NCBI GenBank assembly: GCA_023473585.1
Contig: JAMCYU010000009.1
Span: forward strand, 19,487 to 83,486
DNA from: Patescibacteria group bacterium
Lineage (GTDB): Bacteria > Patescibacteriota > Microgenomatia > JAMCYU01
Reading direction: 5' to 3'
Length of the DNA: 64,000 nucleotides
Positions 5,108-19,867 of the stretch are shown here, piece after piece (position 1 is the stretch's first letter; the number at the start of each line of letters is the position of its first letter). The notes beneath the pieces were generated by a model. It was not told the DNA's origin and searched no databases. It worked only from the letters and a program-made list of their open reading frames with translations. A program made the translations under genes and the position numbers.

Positions 5108-6181
5108 TCAACCTAATTCTATCACTTTTATTTGATCCTGATAATTTTTTTCGACCAAATGTAAATCGGTCGTCGTCATAATCGTTTGCTGCCGGGGAAT
5201 AATTTCCAAAACATAATGACGGTGCTCATGGTCCAACTCGGAGAAAATATCGTCCAAAAGCAAAATTGGCCTTTCGCCGGTTTTGACCGTCATGTATTCC
5301 AGCTCGGCCAATTTAAGCCATAAAATCGCCATGCGCTGTTCTCCCCGAGAACCAAAAAGCGAAAGATCTCTACTTCCCAGCAAGAATTTAAAATCGTCAC
5401 GGTGGGGTCCAACCAAAGTCGCCGCGGCGGCCACTTCCTCTTGAGCATATTGTTCTAACCGCGAGTCAGAAATAACACTTTTGTCGTATTCGATCTGGAA
5501 TGGCTTGCCTTTGGCGATTTCGGCCAAAACCGAAGATCGGTTAAAAAAATTAAGAAACTCAATCCTTTTATCAGTTAAGAGCGAACCATTCCTTATCAGA
5601 AGCTGGTCCCAAAAAAGTAACTGACTTCTGGAAAGACCTTCGTCTCTAATCCTTTCTAAAAGTTTATTTCTCTGCCGCAAGCCTTTCTCGTAAGACAAAA
5701 GAGACCGCCTGTATTCCCTGTCAATTTGCGTTAAAACAAAATCTAAATATCTTCGGCGCCTTGAGGGTGAGTCGGTCACCAGCTCCATATCTTCCGGCCA
5801 AAACAAAACAACGCGCGTGAAACCGACAAAATCAATCATTCTTCTGCTGACACCGTTGACGAAATATTTTTTATGGGGTGTCGGCTGCCCAGCGACCTGA
5901 CCGGCAGTTAAAAGGATTTCCAGATCCGTTTTTCCCTCACTTTTGTCATCTTTTGATACTGTTTGATATTTTATTCTCGCCAACTCCTCTCCTTCTTTAA
6001 TCATCTCTTTTTCTGTTTCCGCCCGAAAACTTTTGCCGGTAGCCAAAAGATGAATCGCCTCTAAAATATTAGTCTTTCCGGCGGTATTCGGCCCGAGGAT
6101 TAAACTTGTTTTAGGAGAAAAAACAAAGGCTTTTTCTTTAAAACTTCTGAAGTTTTTAAGGCTTAATTTATCTAAATACAT
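5108..6181 (-). CDS. recF: DNA replication and repair protein RecF
   Basis: N-terminal LKNFRSF...GPNTAGKTNILEAI Walker A of the RecF/SMC-like family and a C-terminal LLLDDIFSELD signature. Confidence 0.85.
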   Translation of the reverse strand: MYLDKLSLKNFRSFKEKAFVFSPKTSLILGPNTAGKTNILEAIHLLATGKSFRAETEKEMIKEGEELARIKYQTVSKDDKSEGKTDLEILLTAGQVAGQPTPHKKYFVNGVSRRMIDFVGFTRVVLFWPEDMELVTDSPSRRRRYLDFVLTQIDREYRRSLLSYEKGLRQRNKLLERIRDEGLSRSQLLFWDQLLIRNGSLLTDKRIEFLNFFNRSSVLAEIAKGKPFQIEYDKSVISDSRLEQYAQEEVAAAATLVGPHRDDFKFLLGSRDLSLFGSRGEQRMAILWLKLAELEYMTVKTGERPILLLDDIFSELDHEHRHYVLEIIPRQQTIMTTTDLHLVEKNYQDQIKVIELG

Positions 6182-7500
6182 TACTTTTTCTTCTCAAGCA
6201 GAAAAAGAGTTTCCATAAAAACAGGAAGGCTTGGATAAAATTTTTCTGCGGGTTTTAGGTTAAGTTCTTTCCAAAATTTATACCACCAGTTTTTCCCAAA
6301 AACAGAAACGTGAGAAATATCCGGACCATGAAAATGTTTAATCCATTGATTCTCGGTCGTAAAGATTTTATGTAAAACAAATTTCTGAGCCACCCGATTA
6401 CATTCTAAAACCGCTACTTTTAAATCTTCGGTCGGAACATGTTCCAAAACATCGGCTGTCGTTACGACCTCAAAAGAACTGTCTTTGTAGGGTAAAGACA
6501 TAATATTCCCCATTTTTAAGTATTTTTTAACTTGCGGTCTGGCCTTGGATAAAAGATACTGACTAATTTCCAATCCTTGAGCTTCAACCCCTAATAACCT
6601 TAAAAAATAAACCATTTGCCCGGTTCCGCAACCCACATCCAAAAGCGTCTTGGGATTTAGAAGTAATTTAATCTTTATCGCCCGGTAAATATCCCTTAAT
6701 ATGCGCCGAAATTTAACAAAAGAGTCAGTTGTATAGCCTTTTCTTTCGCCGCTTTTACCTCCCTCAAAATAAGCCTGATTATAAAAAGAGGCATCAATTT
6801 GAAAAGGAGCAATAACCGTGCCGGTAAATTTTTTACCCTCAAAAACTTTTTCCAAATTTTCCAAATTATCACCCCGCAGGACAACAACGGTTAAACCTAT
6901 TTTTTGGGCTAATTTTGAAGCTATGGGATCAAAAGGAGTGTTCAAACCGGGGTTCCAAACATCACCGACTAGCGTACGAAAATACTCCCAAGAGGTTCGT
7001 TCAATCGGCGTCGCGTCCTTAAATTTAGCCGGATCCTTATCATAAACCATATCAATATTGGAAAGGTTAATTAAGGTTTTGGATTTATAATCTCTTGCCA
7101 ATAAAACCGCGTTATAATCAGTTGACCATCCCGGTTTCCAACCAGAACAAATAATGACTGGATAAGTGTCCGTGTCATATTTGACATCATATTTATCAAT
7201 AACTCGAGGGTGAGCTAGGTCTTTAAAGATAGTCCGTAGAAGATGAGCGTTAATTCTTGTCGCATGAACACCTAACCAGTCAAGATCGTCATCGGTTAAT
7301 TTTTTCCCCATCACCGCCTGGCCGGCATCGCGATAATGCCTGGCAATTCTGCCGCCGCCGCAAACGATAAAAAATCGCTTGCCAAGGCTGACGTGTTTTC
7401 TGATAAAATCATTAAATTTTTTGAGGAATTCGGTATTAATACCACCATTAGGGACGATTAAAGAACCACCCAATGAGATAATTATAAATTCTTTTTTCAT
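6181..7500 (-). CDS. pyrH: fusion protein: archaeal-type UMP kinase (PyrH) domain + class I SAM-dependent methyltransferase domain
   Basis: N-terminal half LGGSLIVPNGG...IVCGGGRIARHY is an amino-acid-kinase fold of the UMP kinase type. C-terminal half carries LDVGCGTG (motif I) and ADVLEHV. I moved the start to MKKEFII (7500), directly after the upstream gene's stop at 7508. Confidence 0.6.
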   Translation of the reverse strand: MKKEFIIISLGGSLIVPNGGINTEFLKKFNDFIRKHVSLGKRFFIVCGGGRIARHYRDAGQAVMGKKLTDDDLDWLGVHATRINAHLLRTIFKDLAHPRVIDKYDVKYDTDTYPVIICSGWKPGWSTDYNAVLLARDYKSKTLINLSNIDMVYDKDPAKFKDATPIERTSWEYFRTLVGDVWNPGLNTPFDPIASKLAQKIGLTVVVLRGDNLENLEKVFEGKKFTGTVIAPFQIDASFYNQAYFEGGKSGERKGYTTDSFVKFRRILRDIYRAIKIKLLLNPKTLLDVGCGTGQMVYFLRLLGVEAQGLEISQYLLSKARPQVKKYLKMGNIMSLPYKDSSFEVVTTADVLEHVPTEDLKVAVLECNRVAQKFVLHKIFTTENQWIKHFHGPDISHVSVFGKNWWYKFWKELNLKPAEKFYPSLPVFMETLFLLEKKK

Positions 7501-7507
7501 TTTGGTT

Positions 7508-8371
7508 TCAAACAGTAATCGGCCTCGTCTGAAGAAGATAAATTTTTTCTTTTTGGGCCGCCCATTCAAGATCCTGGGGTTTTTGGTAAAAATTCTCAAT
7601 TAAAAGCCCAAGGCTTGCCAATTGAAAAACTTCTTCGTCATTAAGAACCGGTTTATGGCTTTTTAATTTCCGCTGAATAATTTTTAAGTCCGTTTTTTCA
7701 ACCACAAATCTATCTGGCTCAACGATTCCGTCAACAACCTGTGTTCCTAAACCCCTGGCCGCCTCAATAATAATCAATCTTTCGTCGTCTCGCAAGACGT
7801 CTTTAGTAAAGATAACTCCTCCTTTTTCTGCGTTAATCATTTCTTGAACTAAAACCGCCATCTTAATTTCATGCATGGGAATTTGGTGATATAAAGTGTA
7901 AGCAACAACTCTCTCTTCATATAAAGAAGACCAACAGGTTTTGATAAAGTCGAAAACTTTTTCCTCTTTAATGTTTAAATAGCTTTCAAATTGACCGGCA
8001 AAAGAAGCGAAAGCAAGATCTTCGGAAGTAGCCGAAGAGCGAACGGCCAATCTTTTTAATTTATTTTTAAAAATTTCTTGGTTAATTTGTTCTTTTAAAT
8101 TCTTGGGAAACTCTCCTTTTTTAATTTTCCTTTTAAGTTCACGACAAATGTTTTCAAGAATACTTCTGTCATTTTGCAGAGAAAGCCGTTCCAGAAGATA
8201 ACCTAGATTATTTTTCTCAAAAAAAAGATCAAAAGCGACGGTGGTTAAAACAAAGGCGCCGGGAACGGGCAAATCACGGCTAATTAATTGCGCTAGACGA
8301 AAAGCCTTAGCGCCCACAATCGGTTCATCTTTCTTCTTTACGGCCGGAAGAGGTAAAACTAGAGGCATCAT
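7508..8371 (-). CDS. PEP/pyruvate-binding (PPDK_N-like ATP-grasp) domain protein
   Basis: GAKAFRLAQLISRDLPVPGAFVLTT resembles the N-terminal nucleotide-binding domain of PEP synthase / pyruvate phosphate dikinase. Confidence 0.5.
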   Translation of the reverse strand: MMPLVLPLPAVKKKDEPIVGAKAFRLAQLISRDLPVPGAFVLTTVAFDLFFEKNNLGYLLERLSLQNDRSILENICRELKRKIKKGEFPKNLKEQINQEIFKNKLKRLAVRSSATSEDLAFASFAGQFESYLNIKEEKVFDFIKTCWSSLYEERVVAYTLYHQIPMHEIKMAVLVQEMINAEKGGVIFTKDVLRDDERLIIIEAARGLGTQVVDGIVEPDRFVVEKTDLKIIQRKLKSHKPVLNDEEVFQLASLGLLIENFYQKPQDLEWAAQKEKIYLLQTRPITV

Positions 8372-9477
8372 AGTCTTTTAACTGCTAATTCTCCATTTTT
8401 TGTTTCAACCAGCACCTTATCTTTGTCCTTAAAAATTTGGTTACCTATAAAAACAACGAGATGACCAGTCTCCCGAAAAATAGTGGCCGCATGGCCGGTG
8501 CTGGCTGAACCAGGGTAAAGAATGATTTTTTTGTCCTGACTGTTGGTAGCAAGAAAGGTTAAAAGATTCATTTGTCTTTTTTTGATGACTATCGGATCTA
8601 CAAAGATAATTCTTTGCTCCTTACCGATTTTAGGCAAATCACTTTTTGTATTAAGACGAAAGACACTTCCCTCTTCTTTGAGGTGGGGCGCCTTCTCTTT
8701 AGTTAAAAGGAAAGGAATACATTCCCTGAAAAAAAGGCCCTCTCTTTCAAAAGCAAACTCCATCCGATGAGGCCCGTAAGTTTTAACAAAATGTTTGAAA
8801 TAAGAAATTACCTGGAGAATTTGTTTGTCGGAAAACACAGCTTTGTTCCATAAATTTCTGGGAATTTTTAGGCTTCTAATCATTAAATCATTATTTACCT
8901 CCAGGTCTTCTTTCTTCTCCGCCACTACTTTTTCTAGAATCTTTTCCGTTTCGAAATCGACAATATAAAAATCATGAGGAAAACTTTGAACCCCTTCATC
9001 CAAACCATAAATAGCTTCAATAATAACCTTTTGCTGGCTGTTGGAAAGAGTCAAGCAACCGCCGCCGAAGGGGGCCTTAGGATCAATCCAGGGATGAATA
9101 ATGACTCCAATTTTAGCGCCTTTCTTATTGTATCGACTTTGGCAGGCAAAATTATAGAGCTTTTCTACGCCTTTAATCATGTCTTTGGCGCTTCTTACTA
9201 CCGAGTAGGGGCCGGGAGGATTGGTAAAACCGGGAACAGAGAAAGCCCGACCGACATAAAATCCCCGCCGAGGATATTTCTTCTTTAAGTTAAAAAAAAC
9301 CGCCTCAATCTCTTTTTGAAGCGGTTCTGTTATTCCCTTCTTTTCACAAAGAAGAAAGGCTTGATTGTCAATAATCTTAACGTCAGGAATTGGCAATCTT
9401 GCTTTGGCTAATTTTTTAAATCCCTCAACTCTTTCCGTTTTAATTGAGGATTCTAATAAATCTTTGACGTATTTCAT
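8368..9477 (-). CDS. PEP-utilising-enzyme mobile (swivel His) domain protein
   Basis: C-terminus GSASTGHAATIFRETGHLVVFIG matches the phospho-histidine swivel domain. There is a 4-nt ATGA overlap with the downstream gene. Confidence 0.5.
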   Translation of the reverse strand: MKYVKDLLESSIKTERVEGFKKLAKARLPIPDVKIIDNQAFLLCEKKGITEPLQKEIEAVFFNLKKKYPRRGFYVGRAFSVPGFTNPPGPYSVVRSAKDMIKGVEKLYNFACQSRYNKKGAKIGVIIHPWIDPKAPFGGGCLTLSNSQQKVIIEAIYGLDEGVQSFPHDFYIVDFETEKILEKVVAEKKEDLEVNNDLMIRSLKIPRNLWNKAVFSDKQILQVISYFKHFVKTYGPHRMEFAFEREGLFFRECIPFLLTKEKAPHLKEEGSVFRLNTKSDLPKIGKEQRIIFVDPIVIKKRQMNLLTFLATNSQDKKIILYPGSASTGHAATIFRETGHLVVFIGNQIFKDKDKVLVETKNGELAVKRL

Positions 9478-9586
9478 TGGGCTTTAAAAATCCCACCATA
9501 TTGGTGGACTGAAATATCTTACATAATCAATGAGTTTTTGTCAAATAGCTGTGCTGAATATCGTAAGACTTTATTTTAATCGTTCC

Positions 9587-10294
9587 TTATAAAGTCAGCC
9601 TTCTGCTCCTCTCTAACCATTCTTTTTTTATTAAAGCAGCTTGTTCGGGAACATAGTCCCAATGAGAAGCTTTTGTAATATGAGCTCCTCTGGGAACAAC
9701 CAGCTTATTATGATGACCGTCGATAATGATCGTGCTCATCCTTAAGTTTTCGGCTAAGTCCACATTATCATCTATCATCAAATGGGCTCCCAATTTTCCT
9801 ATTTTTTCTTGTTTCCAGATTTTTTCTTGAGGGGTTAAAAGTAAATGGGCCGGCATACATATAACTTCAGCTTCGGGATAACCATTATTTCTTAACCACT
9901 CAACCGTAGTTTGGTAAACGCCATCAGGCCTGCTCGTCACATAGGCAATAAGCCTACCAATCTCTGTCAGTCTCCAAAGTCCTTTAACCGATCCCTCAAC
10001 TGTTCTATGATTCTTGACAAATTCGGAATTACAGCGCAAGTCATTCATAACTTGAGAGAGTTCTTTAGCAAAAGAACACCACGCGGGAACATTTTGAACA
10101 TAACCGTGAACCGCTACTTCTTCTGGAGTTAAATTTGTCCCAAAGCGCGCGTTGAGAAGAGGGATATAGTCTCCCCACGAATCGGCTAGGGTCTCATCAA
10201 TGTCACAAACAATCCTAAAGCTGTTTTCTAACTCGTGAGAGGGAATAAGTTCTGACGTAATCGGTAAGATAAAATCTTCTTTTTTTGTCATCAT
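9587..10294 (-). CDS. HAD-superfamily hydrolase, 5'(3')-deoxyribonucleotidase-like
   Basis: DxDxT motif (CDIDETLADSW) at the N-terminus, as in NT5C-type nucleotidases. Confidence 0.55.
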   Translation of the reverse strand: MMTKKEDFILPITSELIPSHELENSFRIVCDIDETLADSWGDYIPLLNARFGTNLTPEEVAVHGYVQNVPAWCSFAKELSQVMNDLRCNSEFVKNHRTVEGSVKGLWRLTEIGRLIAYVTSRPDGVYQTTVEWLRNNGYPEAEVICMPAHLLLTPQEKIWKQEKIGKLGAHLMIDDNVDLAENLRMSTIIIDGHHNKLVVPRGAHITKASHWDYVPEQAALIKKEWLERSRRLTL

Positions 10295-10343
10295 AGAAAA
10301 GAAATTCTATTCTAGTCCGAAAACCAAAAACTAGCAAGTTTTA

Positions 10344-10372
10344 TTGACAACATAAGAAAAACGTGATATATA
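10344..10372 (+). promoter_or_regulatory. sigma70-type promoter (TTGACA-17-TATATA) for the plus-strand cassette
   Basis: TTGACA, then a 17-nt spacer, then TATATAa. GGAG RBS 8 nt before the ATG at 10393. Confidence 0.55.
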
Positions 10373-10392
10373 AAGACTCTGGAGAAAATTTT

Positions 10393-10794
10393 ATGGTAAC
10401 AAAATTAGAAGTCAACGTTGACGGAACAAAATTCAGCCCAGATCTTCGAGCAAAGGGAGTTGACGAAAAAAAAGCTTGTGGTTTAATTAGAGAGATCCTT
10501 GACGGATACAACGGTCCGGGAGCCGGACCTCAAGGAAAACTTTTAAAAGGCCTGAATTTAACAATAAATGGTCAGGAGAAGAAAACTAGAAAAGAACCTC
10601 CTAAATTATCACCAGAAGACCATCAAGGATTGGCAGAAAAATATAGAGAGCTCGCTGATGACTTAATACAAAGAGCTAAAAATGATCCTTCTCTTTGTCA
10701 ACCATGGTTTAATGACGATGGCGAAGAATGCCCACCTCCAATTACTCTTGTCCCTCAATTGAGCCGGCTAGCTAACCAATTAGAAGCTAAATAA
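10393..10794 (+). CDS. hypothetical protein (133 aa)
   Basis: ORF with a good RBS. The ORF-track start at 10363 overlaps the -10 element, so I used the ATG at 10393. I recognised no family. Confidence 0.5.
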   Translation: MVTKLEVNVDGTKFSPDLRAKGVDEKKACGLIREILDGYNGPGAGPQGKLLKGLNLTINGQEKKTRKEPPKLSPEDHQGLAEKYRELADDLIQRAKNDPSLCQPWFNDDGEECPPPITLVPQLSRLANQLEAK

Positions 10795-10803
10795 AAACAA
10801 TTT

Positions 10804-11766
10804 ATGATCTTAAACCCCGAAAGTGGAAAACCACTTTTGGCTGATTACACCGGTCATTCTCCAAAAATTCTTGTCAGTGAAGGAAATTTACTTGGCCATA
10901 ACCCAGCCATTGAGGGATTTGAAGGCAAAATTCAGGCTTTATGGCAAGAAGCCTGCGGGTCTTTCAGAACAAATAAGGCCAGGATTACTAAAATGCTGGA
11001 AATACTGCCGGCCGATTTAAGAATTCCTCAAACGGTTATCCTTTCCCAAGATAAAGATGGACTGCGAGGAGAGATTGAACAAGGAATAAGGGACAATAGA
11101 GAGATTGGTTTAAGAACCTGTTTTAATAACGCACAGACTCCACCAGCGGGAACTGCTCCTTGGATTATGGGCTTGAATCAAGAAAAACTGGTATCAGCTT
11201 TTTTTGACGAGCAACCGCTTCCAAAAACTCCTATTTGGACAGGCTTTCAAGAAACTTATCGGGACTGGCAAAAATATCCGGGTCTGACCGAAATTATCGT
11301 TATGAAAAATCCGCCTGGTTTAGGCAGAGGAAACTTAAGGGGAAAACATTTTGTCTTCCGGGTTGAAACCGTTGATACCAATTTACGAGCCGAACTAAGA
11401 ATTGGAACAGACCAAATGCGTGACATTGAAGGCAGGGCCAAGCGTGCTGATTTGATTGAAATTACAATGGACATCTCTGAAAACGGTTATGGGATTTTCA
11501 TTCCCGGCAAAATAAAACTCGAACCGGGTAGAAATTATCTTACTAAACACTTAAAAATTCGATCATTCCCCTATAAAATTACTAAACAGGTCATGGAAAC
11601 CGTCTTTGGTCAGTGGTGCCCTCAATTTTATTATCTTTTATTAGCCTTGGATAAATTTGGTTTGGGAGCGATTGAATTTCAGGGTCGTCAAGACAAAGGG
11701 AAAGTTACATGGATTTTAGCCCATGGTTTCAGGGGTGTAAGAGAAGAAAAAATGACTTATCTTTGA
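10804..11766 (+). CDS. hypothetical protein (320 aa)
   Basis: Long ORF 9 nt after the previous one, on the opposite strand to all neighbours. No recognisable motif. Confidence 0.5.
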   Translation: MILNPESGKPLLADYTGHSPKILVSEGNLLGHNPAIEGFEGKIQALWQEACGSFRTNKARITKMLEILPADLRIPQTVILSQDKDGLRGEIEQGIRDNREIGLRTCFNNAQTPPAGTAPWIMGLNQEKLVSAFFDEQPLPKTPIWTGFQETYRDWQKYPGLTEIIVMKNPPGLGRGNLRGKHFVFRVETVDTNLRAELRIGTDQMRDIEGRAKRADLIEITMDISENGYGIFIPGKIKLEPGRNYLTKHLKIRSFPYKITKQVMETVFGQWCPQFYYLLLALDKFGLGAIEFQGRQDKGKVTWILAHGFRGVREEKMTYL

Positions 11767-14651: not shown

Positions 14652-16535
14652 TTAGGCCGCGGCCGGTTCATTTTGAGAAGTACGAATCCCTTTCATCAGG
14701 GAATCAAATTCTTCGCCTTCAATGGTTTCTTTTTTCACCAGCTCGTTGGCGACTAAGTCCAGCTTACCTTTTAATTTCGTTAAAATCTTTAAAGATTCTT
14801 TATAGGCATGGTCAATAATCTTATTAACTTCGTTATCAACTTTCGCGGCCATCTCGGGTGATAACTGAGCCGGCTCATACCACATTCCCCCGGCTTCTGA
14901 CAGATCAACCTGCGGTCCTAAATTAACCGGACCCAAATCACTCATACCATACTCAATAACCATGGTTCGGGCAATTTCCGTGGCCTTTTGAATGTCAGAA
15001 GAGGCACCGGCGGTAAACTCATGAAAAATTAACTCTTCCGCCGCCCGGCCGCCCAAAAGCGAAGTCACCTGTTCCAAAAGATGAGACTGGGTTTCGTTAT
15101 AGCGATCTTTCGCCGGCGGGATTAAAGTAAAGCCTAAAGATAAACCCCGGCTGACAATCGAGATCCGATGTACCGGATCCATGTGCGGCAATTCGTGAGC
15201 GACCACGGCGTGTCCGGCCTCATGATAGGCCGTCATTTTTTTGTCCAAATCCGACTGAAGCCGTTTCTTTTCCGGACCTAACTTAACTTTGGTCGCGGCT
15301 TCTTCGATATCTTCCATATCAATCGCTCTTTTTCCGCCTCGAGCCGCTAAAATCGCCGCTTCGTTAAGCATATTCTCCAAATCCGCTCCGGAAAAACCGA
15401 CCGTCCGTTTGGCCACCTTGTCCCAATCAACTTCTTTCGTAAAGGGCTTGCCTCTCATATGAATCTTTAAAATCGCCTTGCGGCCTTCAATGTCCGGCAT
15501 ATCCAACATCACCCGGCGGTCAAAGCGGCCCGGTCGCAGCAGGGCCGGATCTAAAAGATCGCCTCTGTTGGTCGCGGCAATGACAATCACGTTTTCGTTC
15601 GGCGTAAAACCGTCCATCTCCACCAAAATCTGGTTTAAAGTCTGTTCCCGTTCGTCATGCCCGCCCATGACCCCGACGGCCCGCATCCGACCAATGGCGT
15701 CAATCTCGTCAATGAAAATAATCGCCGGCGCGTTTTTCTTGGCCGTGTTAAAAAGATCCCGAACTCTTGAGGCACCGACACCAACTAACATTTCCATAAA
15801 TTCCGAGCCGGCCATGGAGAAAAAAGCGACATTAGCCTCACCGGCCACGGCCCGCGCCAAAAGAGTTTTGCCGGTTCCGGCGGGCCCAACCAGCAGGGCT
15901 CCCTTTGGGGTTCTGGCCCCTAAAGCACGGTACTTACCAGGATGTTTTAAGAAGTCAACGACTTCGGAAAGCTCTTGTTTGGCCTCATCCACGCCGGCCA
16001 CGTCCGCGAAAGTCACTTTCGGCATGTCTTTATTAAAAAGTTTAGCTTTGGACTGGCCGAAAGAGAAAAGGTTATCTTGAGCTCCTCTCGCCTGACGGAA
16101 AATAAAGAAGAAAAAAGCCACCATTAAAACCAAAGGCAAAACAGTCGAGAGAAAATTCCACCAAGCCGCGGTCATTTCCGAATCTTTAACCTGAATTTCC
16201 ACCTGCTTGGCATCAATACCGGCCGATTCTAAGATTTTCGTCAACGACTCCTGCGATTCTTTGTGGACGTTAAAGGCCTTTCCGTCTTTATAGGTTACGG
16301 TTAGACGATTCCCCTCAACTTCAATTTTTTTAATTTTATTGTCCTTAGCGTCACTAATAATCGTTGATAACGGTTTCTCTTCTAAGAATTTGGCTCCATG
16401 TTGAAAGGAAAGAAAAAAGGAAACACCGAAAATAAAGATAAAAAACCAGATAAAAAGATTTTTGAGGTTTAAATTTACCCTAATTTCAGACATTTTCTTG
16501 ATAGGACGCAATTTTTGAGTGTCTTCTTCCATCAT
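14652..16535 (-). CDS. ftsH: ATP-dependent zinc metalloprotease FtsH
   Basis: [18 protein letters not shown] Walker A, second region of homology, HEAGHA zinc site, and an N-terminal TM. Confidence 0.95.
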
Positions 16536-19003: not shown

Positions 19004-19867
19004 ATGCCTCAAACTCTTGATTTATCTTCTGCCAGAGAAAAATTTGTTGAATTTTTAGAAGGGCAACGGCGTGCCCATGCCACTATTTTAGCATACCGCA
19101 AAGATATCGAACAATTAATGAACTTCCTCAAGGATATGGGTAGAAAAACCATTGATGAGGCGCAAAAAGAAGATATCGAGGCTTTCTTAGGTAAGCTCGG
19201 CAAAGACGGCTACACGCAAAAATCTCTTTCCCGAAAGTTAAACTCTTTTAAAACTTTTTACCGGTTTTTAAAAAGCTCCGACATTGTTCAGTTTGATCGG
19301 GCCGCAGAAATCGCTCACCCGAAATATGAAGTTCGGCCGCCCAGAATTCTTTCCAAAATAGAATACCGGGCGCTAAGAGATGCCTGCCGGGAAGATGTCA
19401 GAATTTCCGCTATTGTTGAGATTCTTCTGCAAACCGGCTTAAGAATCGGTGAGTTGGCCAACTTACGTCTTGAAGATCTTCGGGAAAACGAAATTATCGT
19501 TAAGCCCTTTGAATCCCATGAAGGCCGAACTGTGCCTTTAAACAAGGCGGCTAAGGCGGCTTTGGACCATTATCTGACGATCAGGCCGAAAACCAAGGAA
19601 GAAGCGCTTTTCATAACCAAAACCGGCAAACCACTTTTGATCAGAAACATAAGAACCGCGATTGACCGTTATTTTAAATTGGCCGGAATTGAACATGCGT
19701 GTGTTAATGATCTCCGTCATACTTTTATTGCCCATCATTTAATGGCCGGAACGCCTTTAACCGTCATCTCGAAACTAGCCGGCCACAAAAGACTCTCGAC
19801 GACCGAAAAGTATTTAGATTTAGTAAAAGACAAAGTCGAAGAAAACGTCAAATTAGAGGAATTATAG
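19004..19867 (+). CDS. tyrosine site-specific recombinase (XerC/XerD/phage-integrase family)
   Basis: N-terminal SAM-like domain and a catalytic domain with R...HxxR...Y signature (DLRHTFIAHHLMAG...TEKYLDL). Confidence 0.85.
   Translation: MPQTLDLSSAREKFVEFLEGQRRAHATILAYRKDIEQLMNFLKDMGRKTIDEAQKEDIEAFLGKLGKDGYTQKSLSRKLNSFKTFYRFLKSSDIVQFDRAAEIAHPKYEVRPPRILSKIEYRALRDACREDVRISAIVEILLQTGLRIGELANLRLEDLRENEIIVKPFESHEGRTVPLNKAAKAALDHYLTIRPKTKEEALFITKTGKPLLIRNIRTAIDRYFKLAGIEHACVNDLRHTFIAHHLMAGTPLTVISKLAGHKRLSTTEKYLDLVKDKVEENVKLEEL

Follow-up and report, generated by a model that had tools for sequence, protein, structure and literature searches.

A syntenic two-gene operon of Patescibacteria encodes a predicted ATP-grasp-fold protein some of whose relatives are fused to phosphohistidine relay domains

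Embedded in a block of minus-strand genes on contig JAMCYU010000009.1 of a Patescibacteria group bacterium (GenBank assembly GCA_023473585.1) is a pair of adjoining plus-strand open reading frames (ORFs), referred to here as ORF-A and ORF-B. The pair lies in a 64,000-nucleotide (nt) stretch covering positions 19,487–83,486 of the contig, referred to here as the window and numbered from its first letter. Sequence and synteny indicate that the two genes form a vertically inherited operon that is specific to a small group of Patescibacteria, and ORF-B is a predicted catalytically intact member of an undescribed family with the ATP-grasp fold. In many relatives, the ORF-B-like domain is fused behind the first two domains of phosphoenolpyruvate (PEP) synthase and pyruvate phosphate dikinase (PPDK). 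We tentatively propose that ORF-B is the acceptor-side phosphoryl-transfer module of a PEP-synthase-like dikinase relay and that ORF-A is its small partner subunit, a reading whose probability we place somewhat short of even.

The pair and its upstream signals comprise the following elements:

10344–10349, plus strand: −35 box TTGACA, read from the sequence, with a 17-nt spacer to the −10 box
10364–10372, plus strand: extended −10 box TGaTATATA (TG at 10364–10365, TATATA at 10367–10372)
10381–10384, plus strand: Shine-Dalgarno-like GGAG, 8 nt before the ATG of ORF-A
10393–10794, plus strand: ORF-A, 133 amino acids (aa), with its ATG at 10393
10804–11766, plus strand: ORF-B, 320 aa, starting after a 9-nt gap from ORF-A

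All of this anatomy, which an initial annotation of the window had described from the letters, is read in the sequence. The statement that every flanking gene lies on the other strand holds between 558 and 18293, where all ORFs of at least 110 aa are on the minus strand except ORF-A, ORF-B and one antisense artefact inside ftsH. The 320-aa start of ORF-B takes in an N-terminal motif, LLADYxGHSP, that is common to its relatives; a shorter call of 309 aa (P0001) was rejected, as the conserved motif lies upstream of that start. A GTG at 10363 was discarded as the start of ORF-A, as it falls inside the promoter.

Neither protein has a match in Pfam, NCBIfam, PADLOC or PHROGs (E ≤ 1), and searches of Protein Data Bank (PDB) sequences with single sequences and with profiles return no match, in agreement with the initial annotation, which recognised no family for either. 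A Pfam scan of 36 ORF-B family members at E ≤ 10 gives no match and no consistent weak family. Close relatives of ORF-B are few: among 5.8 billion protein clusters, eight are found by a single-sequence search and nine by a profile search, at 38–62% identity, in addition to one identical copy. When 1.84 billion representatives were searched exhaustively with a profile, 126 distant relatives were found; 86 of these reach E ≤ 1e-10, and 32 reach E ≤ 1e-30. The only names that source databases give to the family are ‘hypothetical protein’ and ‘phosphohistidine swiveling domain-containing protein’, and at present it has no name of its own, no Pfam model and no assigned function. The ORF-B family, its fusion architecture and the small-protein family that accompanies it are undescribed in the libraries and literature searched, where neither the fused architecture nor a defence link turned up; the ATP-grasp fold class and the logic of dikinase relays are known already.

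The fused relatives account for 51 of the 132 family sequences (~40%) and are proteins of 713–1031 aa with the ORF-B-like domain at the C-terminus. In all eight of those sampled, this domain is preceded by a PPDK_N domain and then by a PEP-utilizers swivel (PF00391, up to E = 4e-24). Each fusion is one uninterrupted reading frame, and no other recurrent fusion partner of the ORF-B-like domain was found. The fused proteins have the layout of PEP synthase and PPDK with a new third domain, in which the ORF-B-like domain occupies the slot of the pyruvate-binding domain.

An AlphaFold (AF2) model of ORF-B, built with a 9-sequence alignment, has a predicted local distance difference test (pLDDT) score of 80.9 and a predicted TM-score (pTM) of 0.80, with residues 1–31 disordered. 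The best 50 Foldseek matches in the PDB are all ATP-grasp enzymes (probability up to 1.00), among them PGM1, D-Ala-D-Ala ligases (Ddl), ATP-citrate lyase (ACLY), carbamoyl-phosphate synthetase (CPS), tubulin-tyrosine ligase (TTL), the succinyl-CoA synthetase β-subunit (SCS-beta), PatZ and PPDK. PGM1 is the best match, and the highest query TM-score is that of PPDK (1dik, 0.37). Matches in the viral library (BFVD) again belong to the ATP-grasp class, with a top TM-score of 0.42; the best is phage G Gp139 and the second a PPDK_N-type protein. From these models, ORF-B is accepted as a predicted member of the ATP-grasp fold class, an assignment that does not extend to close superposition.

Conserved in fused and stand-alone members alike, at 75–99%, are eight polar residues (K58, R104, H182, T202, R206, E291, Q293 and E314), all of which are present in the ORF-B of the window. 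Conservation is 87–99% for K58, R104, R206 and E291-x-Q293, with E291 and Q293 located on a predicted strand (residues 289–297). This set fits a putative intact phosphoryl-transfer or Mg site. Seven colinear motif pairs can be drawn by eye between ORF-B and PPDK_N (TxKA with GxKA, LRTC with VRSS, PWIMGLN with FAGQxESYLN, EIIVM with AVLVQEM, HFVFR with GVIFT, GTDQMR with GLGTQVV, and IEFQG..ILAHGFRG with LEWA..LLQTRP); they have no statistical support and are only a lead.

Both relay modules are encoded 1–3 kb upstream of ORF-A and ORF-B, so that all three modules of the fused architecture lie within 4.3 kb of the window. The three genes immediately upstream of the pair are:

7508–8371, minus strand: g287, 287 aa, a complete stand-alone PPDK_N ATP-grasp protein, the nucleotide-binding module (PF01326, E = 5.2e-73)
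8368–9477, minus strand: g369, 369 aa, a degenerate ATP-grasp half with a C-terminal phosphohistidine swivel and a putative phospho-carrier, His329 (codon 8491–8493)
9587–10294, minus strand: a HAD 5′-nucleotidase of the NT5C family, divergent from ORF-A (Pfam PF06941, E = 5.7e-12)

The g287 protein covers positions 2–311 of the 328 in the PF01326 profile and is 20–28% identical to the N-terminal domain of fused family members. In g369, PPDK_N is matched over residues 113–250 (E = 1.5e-9), and the Pfam PEP-utilizers model stays below threshold. In a phmmer comparison with PEP synthase (8a8e_A), residues 143–342 of g369 align to 235–455 (E = 1.1e-7), with the STGH segment that contains His329 falling on the catalytic RTSH of PEP synthase. 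The same g369/g287 pair is present in the closest relative, L005 (loci of family members are given L numbers here), and we infer that the two proteins are putative relay partners of ORF-B. Together, the two genes (7508–9477, minus strand) read as a split PEP-synthase-like enzyme without the pyruvate-binding barrel, in a gene order that recalls HpeHI and CreHI. The initial annotation had missed both links, that is, the fusion of the family to PEP-synthase-type relay domains and the presence of such domains just upstream of the pair.

In the proposed relay, the ATP-grasp and swivel modules would be supplied in this genome by the neighbouring genes g287 and g369. The ATP-grasp module of g287 would use ATP to phosphorylate the swivel residue His329 of g369, and the swivel would deliver the phosphoryl group to a substrate in a Mg/phosphate-type site of ORF-B, to which K58, R104, H182, T202, R206 and E291-x-Q293 would contribute. 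ORF-A, as a small helical subunit, would bind ORF-B in a regulatory or adaptor role; this interaction is putative, and a possible analogue of ORF-A is the small third subunit of phenylphosphate synthase, which is stimulatory. A nucleotide or other phospho-ester is weakly suggested as the acceptor, because the recurrent neighbours of the family are nucleotide and phospho-ester enzymes.

The fused relatives of ORF-B share with PEP synthase and PPDK the first two domains, in the same order, and the window likewise has a gene for a PPDK_N protein and one for a swivel protein, the His of which aligns to the catalytic His. The third domain, however, is ATP-grasp-like α/β here and a TIM barrel there, the modules of the window are separate genes on both strands, and the ORF-B sequence matches neither PPDK_N nor PEP-utilizers_C. 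Dikinases of the rifampin phosphotransferase (RPH) type combine an ATP-grasp module and a swivel His with a substrate domain particular to each family (PMC4844700; PMC12167813), and in HpeHI, CreHI and PpsAB the ATP-grasp and swivel modules are on separate, transiently associating polypeptides (PMC12167813). In all of these, a RIF-binding-type substrate domain precedes the C-terminal swivel, whereas the ORF-B-like domain follows the swivel, and ORF-B has no sequence or fold match to the RIF-binding domain. VadK (Rv1127c), a truncated PPDK that consists of PPDK_N and swivel without the pyruvate domain, autophosphorylates and acts on partners as a kinase in trans (bioRxiv 10.1101/2025.10.30.685616). 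The g369/g287 pair parallels VadK, which differs in being a single mycobacterial polypeptide with no known ORF-B-like partner.

Among the fold matches of ORF-B are also SCS-beta, ACLY and PatZ. In SCS, ACLY and the ADP-forming acyl-CoA synthetases, the nucleotide is bound by an ATP-grasp domain, to which a phosphohistidine shuttles. Their phospho-His is carried on a loop of the CoA-binding subunit and not on a PEP-utilizers swivel; they have no sequence similarity to ORF-B, and no CoA-ligase domains are found here. The ligases PGM1, RimK, LysX/LysW and TTL have in common with ORF-B the ATP-grasp fold and a gene that adjoins one for a small protein, but the ORF-A family has no conserved acceptor or C-terminus and there is no profile match.

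If the proposed role is correct, ORF-B would represent a third kind of acceptor module for dikinases of the PEP-synthase, PPDK and rifampin phosphotransferase types, next to the TIM barrel and the RIF-binding fold. The family is of interest to enzymologists and to annotators of Patescibacteria (candidate phyla radiation) genomes. A small and poorly called gene also travels with ORF-B in these bacteria, for which metabolism has mostly been deduced from annotation.

All close relatives of ORF-B (38–62% identity) are preceded, at a distance of 8–93 nt, by a small ORF of 62–81 aa. Elsewhere in the databases ORF-A itself has only one exact copy, an NCBI ‘hypothetical protein’ from a Patescibacteria metagenome-assembled genome, and no other relative. 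The window matches a genome of this kind, GCA_023380895.1, and the pair is also carried by GCA_040961665.1, GCA_023485715.1 and the JGI contigs Ga0302253_1000048 and Ga0233437_1000010. The small ORFs link back to ORF-A in BLASTP with 51, 28.5, 67 and 33.5 bits: ORF-A is 39% identical over 62 aa to the 66-aa ORF of L001 (51 bits) and 32.5% identical over 83 aa to the 81-aa ORF of L010. Among the small ORFs themselves, identities are 65% for L010 and L005, 43% for L010 and L006, and 29% for L005 and L008. The 66-aa ORF at 7734–7934 (plus strand) of L001, found also in L002–L004, is homologous to the C-terminal half of ORF-A, shares with it the motif N-[DE]-DGE-x-CPPP and is not called in the source records. 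The small partners of ORF-B are systematically under-annotated, several of them having no gene call in those records.

The rate of evolution is much higher in ORF-A than in ORF-B, and the ORF-A family appears from the alignments to be a fast-evolving, mosaic one of which ORF-A is the longest member. Lengths range from 62 to 133 aa, one loosely conserved helix is common to all, and neither an acidic C-terminus nor any other acceptor residue is conserved in the alignment. An AF2 model of ORF-A from the single sequence has a helix/β-hairpin/helix arrangement at residues 73–133 (pLDDT 76–82) and low confidence in the N-terminal half, with pLDDT below 50 for residues 1–23 and 41–72; a fold search with this model gave no match and, as the model is only half-confident, is uninformative. 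The small ORF is missing upstream of the distant stand-alone members (L018, L021) and of fused members. In a housekeeping region by the prolyl-tRNA synthetase gene, L023 has two tandem ORF-B-family paralogues (5910–6956 and 6971–7918, plus strand) followed by a 66-aa ORF.

In relatives at 44–62% identity, the pair occupies the same chromosomal position: it lies on the plus strand within the same block of minus-strand housekeeping genes and converges on fpg. This context, between NT5C (or a gene for an amino-acid kinase–methyltransferase) and fpg, is seen in the window, L005, L001–L004 and L009; in a second context, seen in L006, L008 and L017, the small ORF and ORF-B lie between SIMPL and a gene for a XerC-like recombinase. 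Because it is found in two different conserved neighbourhoods, the pair has been relocated and retained as a unit. Locus scans yielded one locus in GTDB genomes, which was already known, and four in metagenomes, and context statistics are thin. No GC or codon anomaly is found at the pair. Its GC content (0.400 for ORF-A and 0.408 for ORF-B) is close to that of the window (0.412), and third-position GC is low (0.25 and 0.34, respectively). Between 9400 and 12700, flanking repeats are only short chance ones, and an Rfam scan gave a single sub-threshold snoRNA match. Searches of phage and plasmid collections (tblastn) and a pattern scan of viral contigs found nothing related. Horizontal insertion was rejected, as the pair is syntenic, native in composition and free of flanking repeats.

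These results bear differently on the initial annotation. Its self-contained two-gene unit is borne out by the small ORF that precedes every close ORF-B relative in both conserved contexts. Its description of the unit as orphan or accessory is contradicted by the synteny, the native composition and the lack of phage, plasmid or viral matches, and the slightly higher local GC that it mentioned is not found. It had named conserved core proteins, syntenic in all relatives, as the opposite of such a unit, and this is largely what is seen, the context being kept together with fpg at 44–62% identity. A pair of ‘hypothetical’ genes on the opposite strand, with a good-looking promoter, resembled an insertion, yet is ancestral and syntenic, a lesson for genome scanning.

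The same evidence counts against the toxin/immunity or defence module that the initial annotation had suggested. A toxin–antitoxin or anti-phage pair, in which a toxic ORF-B enzyme would be countered by ORF-A as the small labile antitoxin or immunity protein, would accord with a small upstream gene and a larger downstream enzyme under their own promoter, with the faster evolution of ORF-A, and with the restriction and defence genes that lie beside some fused members (L014, L015). It is nonetheless very unlikely, given the absence of PADLOC, PHROGs, Pfam and NCBIfam matches, the synteny in housekeeping blocks across relatives at 38–62% identity, the absence from the phage, plasmid and viral-contig collections searched, the native GC and codon usage without flanking repeats, and the retention of the pair at a fixed site in strongly reduced genomes. 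We consider it equally improbable that ORF-B is a degenerate, non-catalytic ATP-grasp protein with a nucleotide-binding or regulatory function, serving as a sensor domain instead of a substrate site in the fusions, ORF-A then being a marginal small ORF or one unrelated to it. Heterogeneous neighbourhoods and the lack of a profile tie to active ATP-grasp families would agree with this, but charged and polar residues of the phosphoryl-transfer type are 75–99% conserved over very divergent members, and the small ORF, homologous between lineages, travels with ORF-B through two contexts.

Unlikely, though less so than either of these, is that ORF-B works autonomously, as a classical ATP-grasp ligase or kinase drawing directly on ATP, with ORF-A as its protein substrate or carrier and the fusions as a secondary elaboration. 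PGM1, which heads the PDB fold matches, is a ligase acting on ribosomal peptides, and TTL is matched as well; the small ORF is always immediately upstream and probably translationally coupled; and E-x-Q on a late β-strand resembles, by eye, the E-x-N Mg motif of ATP-grasp ligases. Most stand-alone members, moreover, are without a nearby PPDK_N or swivel gene. Yet the small ORFs have one invariant Pro and no conserved acidic C-terminus or acceptor, and distant stand-alone members (L018, L021) and fused members do without a small ORF altogether. ORF-B has no sequence similarity to the RimK, TTL or MdnC-type families, and no protease or exporter gene is nearby as in clusters for ribosomally synthesized and post-translationally modified peptides (RiPPs). 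Features of a RiPP or graspetide precursor, such as a conserved leader and core motif, are not seen in the small ORFs, nor is there an adjacent protease or transporter gene.

Several observations also weigh against ORF-B being the acceptor module of a relay. The fold matches are weak (PDB TM-scores of 0.22–0.37, E ~1e-4), and no sequence profile ties ORF-B to any ATP-grasp family, PPDK_N included. With hhalign, in local and global modes, the ORF-B family scores no higher than a reversed-sequence control against the two PPDK_N proteins of the window and a 52-sequence PPDK_N profile. PPDK_N genes lie beside ORF-B only in the window and L005, which are one lineage, and no PPDK_N or relay gene is present within ~7–8 kb in L001, L006, L017, L018, L021 and L023. 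As the relay genes are absent nearby in most stand-alone contexts, those members would function by themselves or draw on a donor from another locus, and g369/g287 could be a self-sufficient two-component dikinase unrelated to ORF-B. The ORF-A family is almost without invariant residues, with a single invariant Pro in the alignment, and the suggested substrate is drawn only from nearby genes.

The acceptor-module reading can be carried further, to a new class of dikinase in which the swivel His shuttles phosphate between two ATP-grasp-type sites, the second holding a nucleotide acceptor, for example a pyrimidine nucleoside mono- or diphosphate. This would constitute an unrecognised salvage route that phosphorylates nucleotides in Patescibacteria with reduced genomes and in other bacteria, with ORF-A as a lineage-specific regulatory subunit, and in this specific form it is distinctly improbable. 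Hints towards it come from neighbours of family members, namely uracil phosphoribosyltransferase (UPRTase), NT5C, YfbR-like proteins, a P-loop kinase, HD, inositol monophosphatase and HAD proteins, and a UMP-kinase-like fusion. UPRTase is found in two independent contexts (L012, L014) and NT5C likewise in two (window, L013). Tandem YfbR-like 5′-deoxynucleotidase HD domains are encoded in L014, a P-loop kinase (AAA_18/AAA_33) overlaps the 3′ end in L015, and L018 has HD, inositol monophosphatase and HAD phosphatase neighbours. Conflict genes are also present beside fused members, with HD-CE, EAD8 and Trypsin_2 in L014 and GmrSD, type I HsdR and PLDc_2 in L015.

NT5C adjoins the pair in L005 as in the window, and L013 has an NT5C gene 6 kb away from a fused member; a functional link to ORF-A and ORF-B is possible. 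At 6181–7599 (minus strand) of the window, a UMP-kinase-like amino-acid-kinase domain is fused to an S-adenosylmethionine-dependent methyltransferase, and this fusion is conserved, at the corresponding position, in L001, a distant relative. If a TTG start is used, this gene may overlap the start of the PPDK_N gene.

The −10 box of the pair, TATATA, matches TATAAT at four of six positions; it was passed over by a consensus promoter scanner, as it has A at position 6 and lacks the conserved final T. Perfect TTGACA boxes with a −10 box of at least 4/6 occur at nine sites in the window, which is about the chance expectation given 48 copies of TTGACA, and the near-consensus, strong promoter of the initial annotation was overstated to this extent. 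The estimated chance of finding one such site on the correct strand in this 98-nt intergenic gap is ~0.006, and the relatives have TATAAT, TATAGT or TATATT directly upstream of their small ORF. Owing to the position of the site in the gap and to these promoter-like boxes in the relatives, it is likely that the pair has a promoter of its own. At the place equivalent to GGAG, L005 has AGGAGG and L001 has no Shine-Dalgarno sequence.

Two divergent promoter-like elements stand back to back in the gap (10295–10392). On the minus strand, TTGCTA (starting at 10337) and TAGAAT, 17 nt apart, face NT5C; on the plus strand, TTGACA (10344) and TATATA, also 17 nt apart, face ORF-A. With 6 nt between the two −35 boxes, this arrangement would allow NT5C and ORF-A to be co-regulated. 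Upstream of the small ORFs of L001 (7636–7736) and L005 (5700–5800) is a common motif, ACTTGAC(A/T)A..TA.GCTATAAT, in which a TTGACA-like box is 7 nt from a perfect TATAAT. This is too close for a standard −35/−10 pair, and the motif may be an operator or another promoter architecture.

At their 3′ ends, ORF-B-family genes converge on genes of DNA metabolism. In the window, ORF-B and fpg overlap by 10 nt (11757–11766); in L021, the overlap with a MGMT-type DNA_binding_1 gene is 4 nt (8056–8059); and in L006, the gap to the XerC-like recombinase gene is 0 nt (7539/7540). No terminators are predicted at the fpg, DNA_binding_1 and XerC-like junctions. The five-gene block from the PPDK_N gene to ORF-B (7508–11766) has a third-position GC of 0.25–0.37, compared with 0.42–0.45 in the flanking genes, and an unremarkable overall GC. 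The central part of ftsH (15000–16000, minus strand) has a GC content of 0.50–0.55 against a window mean of 0.41, and an antisense ORF of 200 aa within it is almost certainly spurious.

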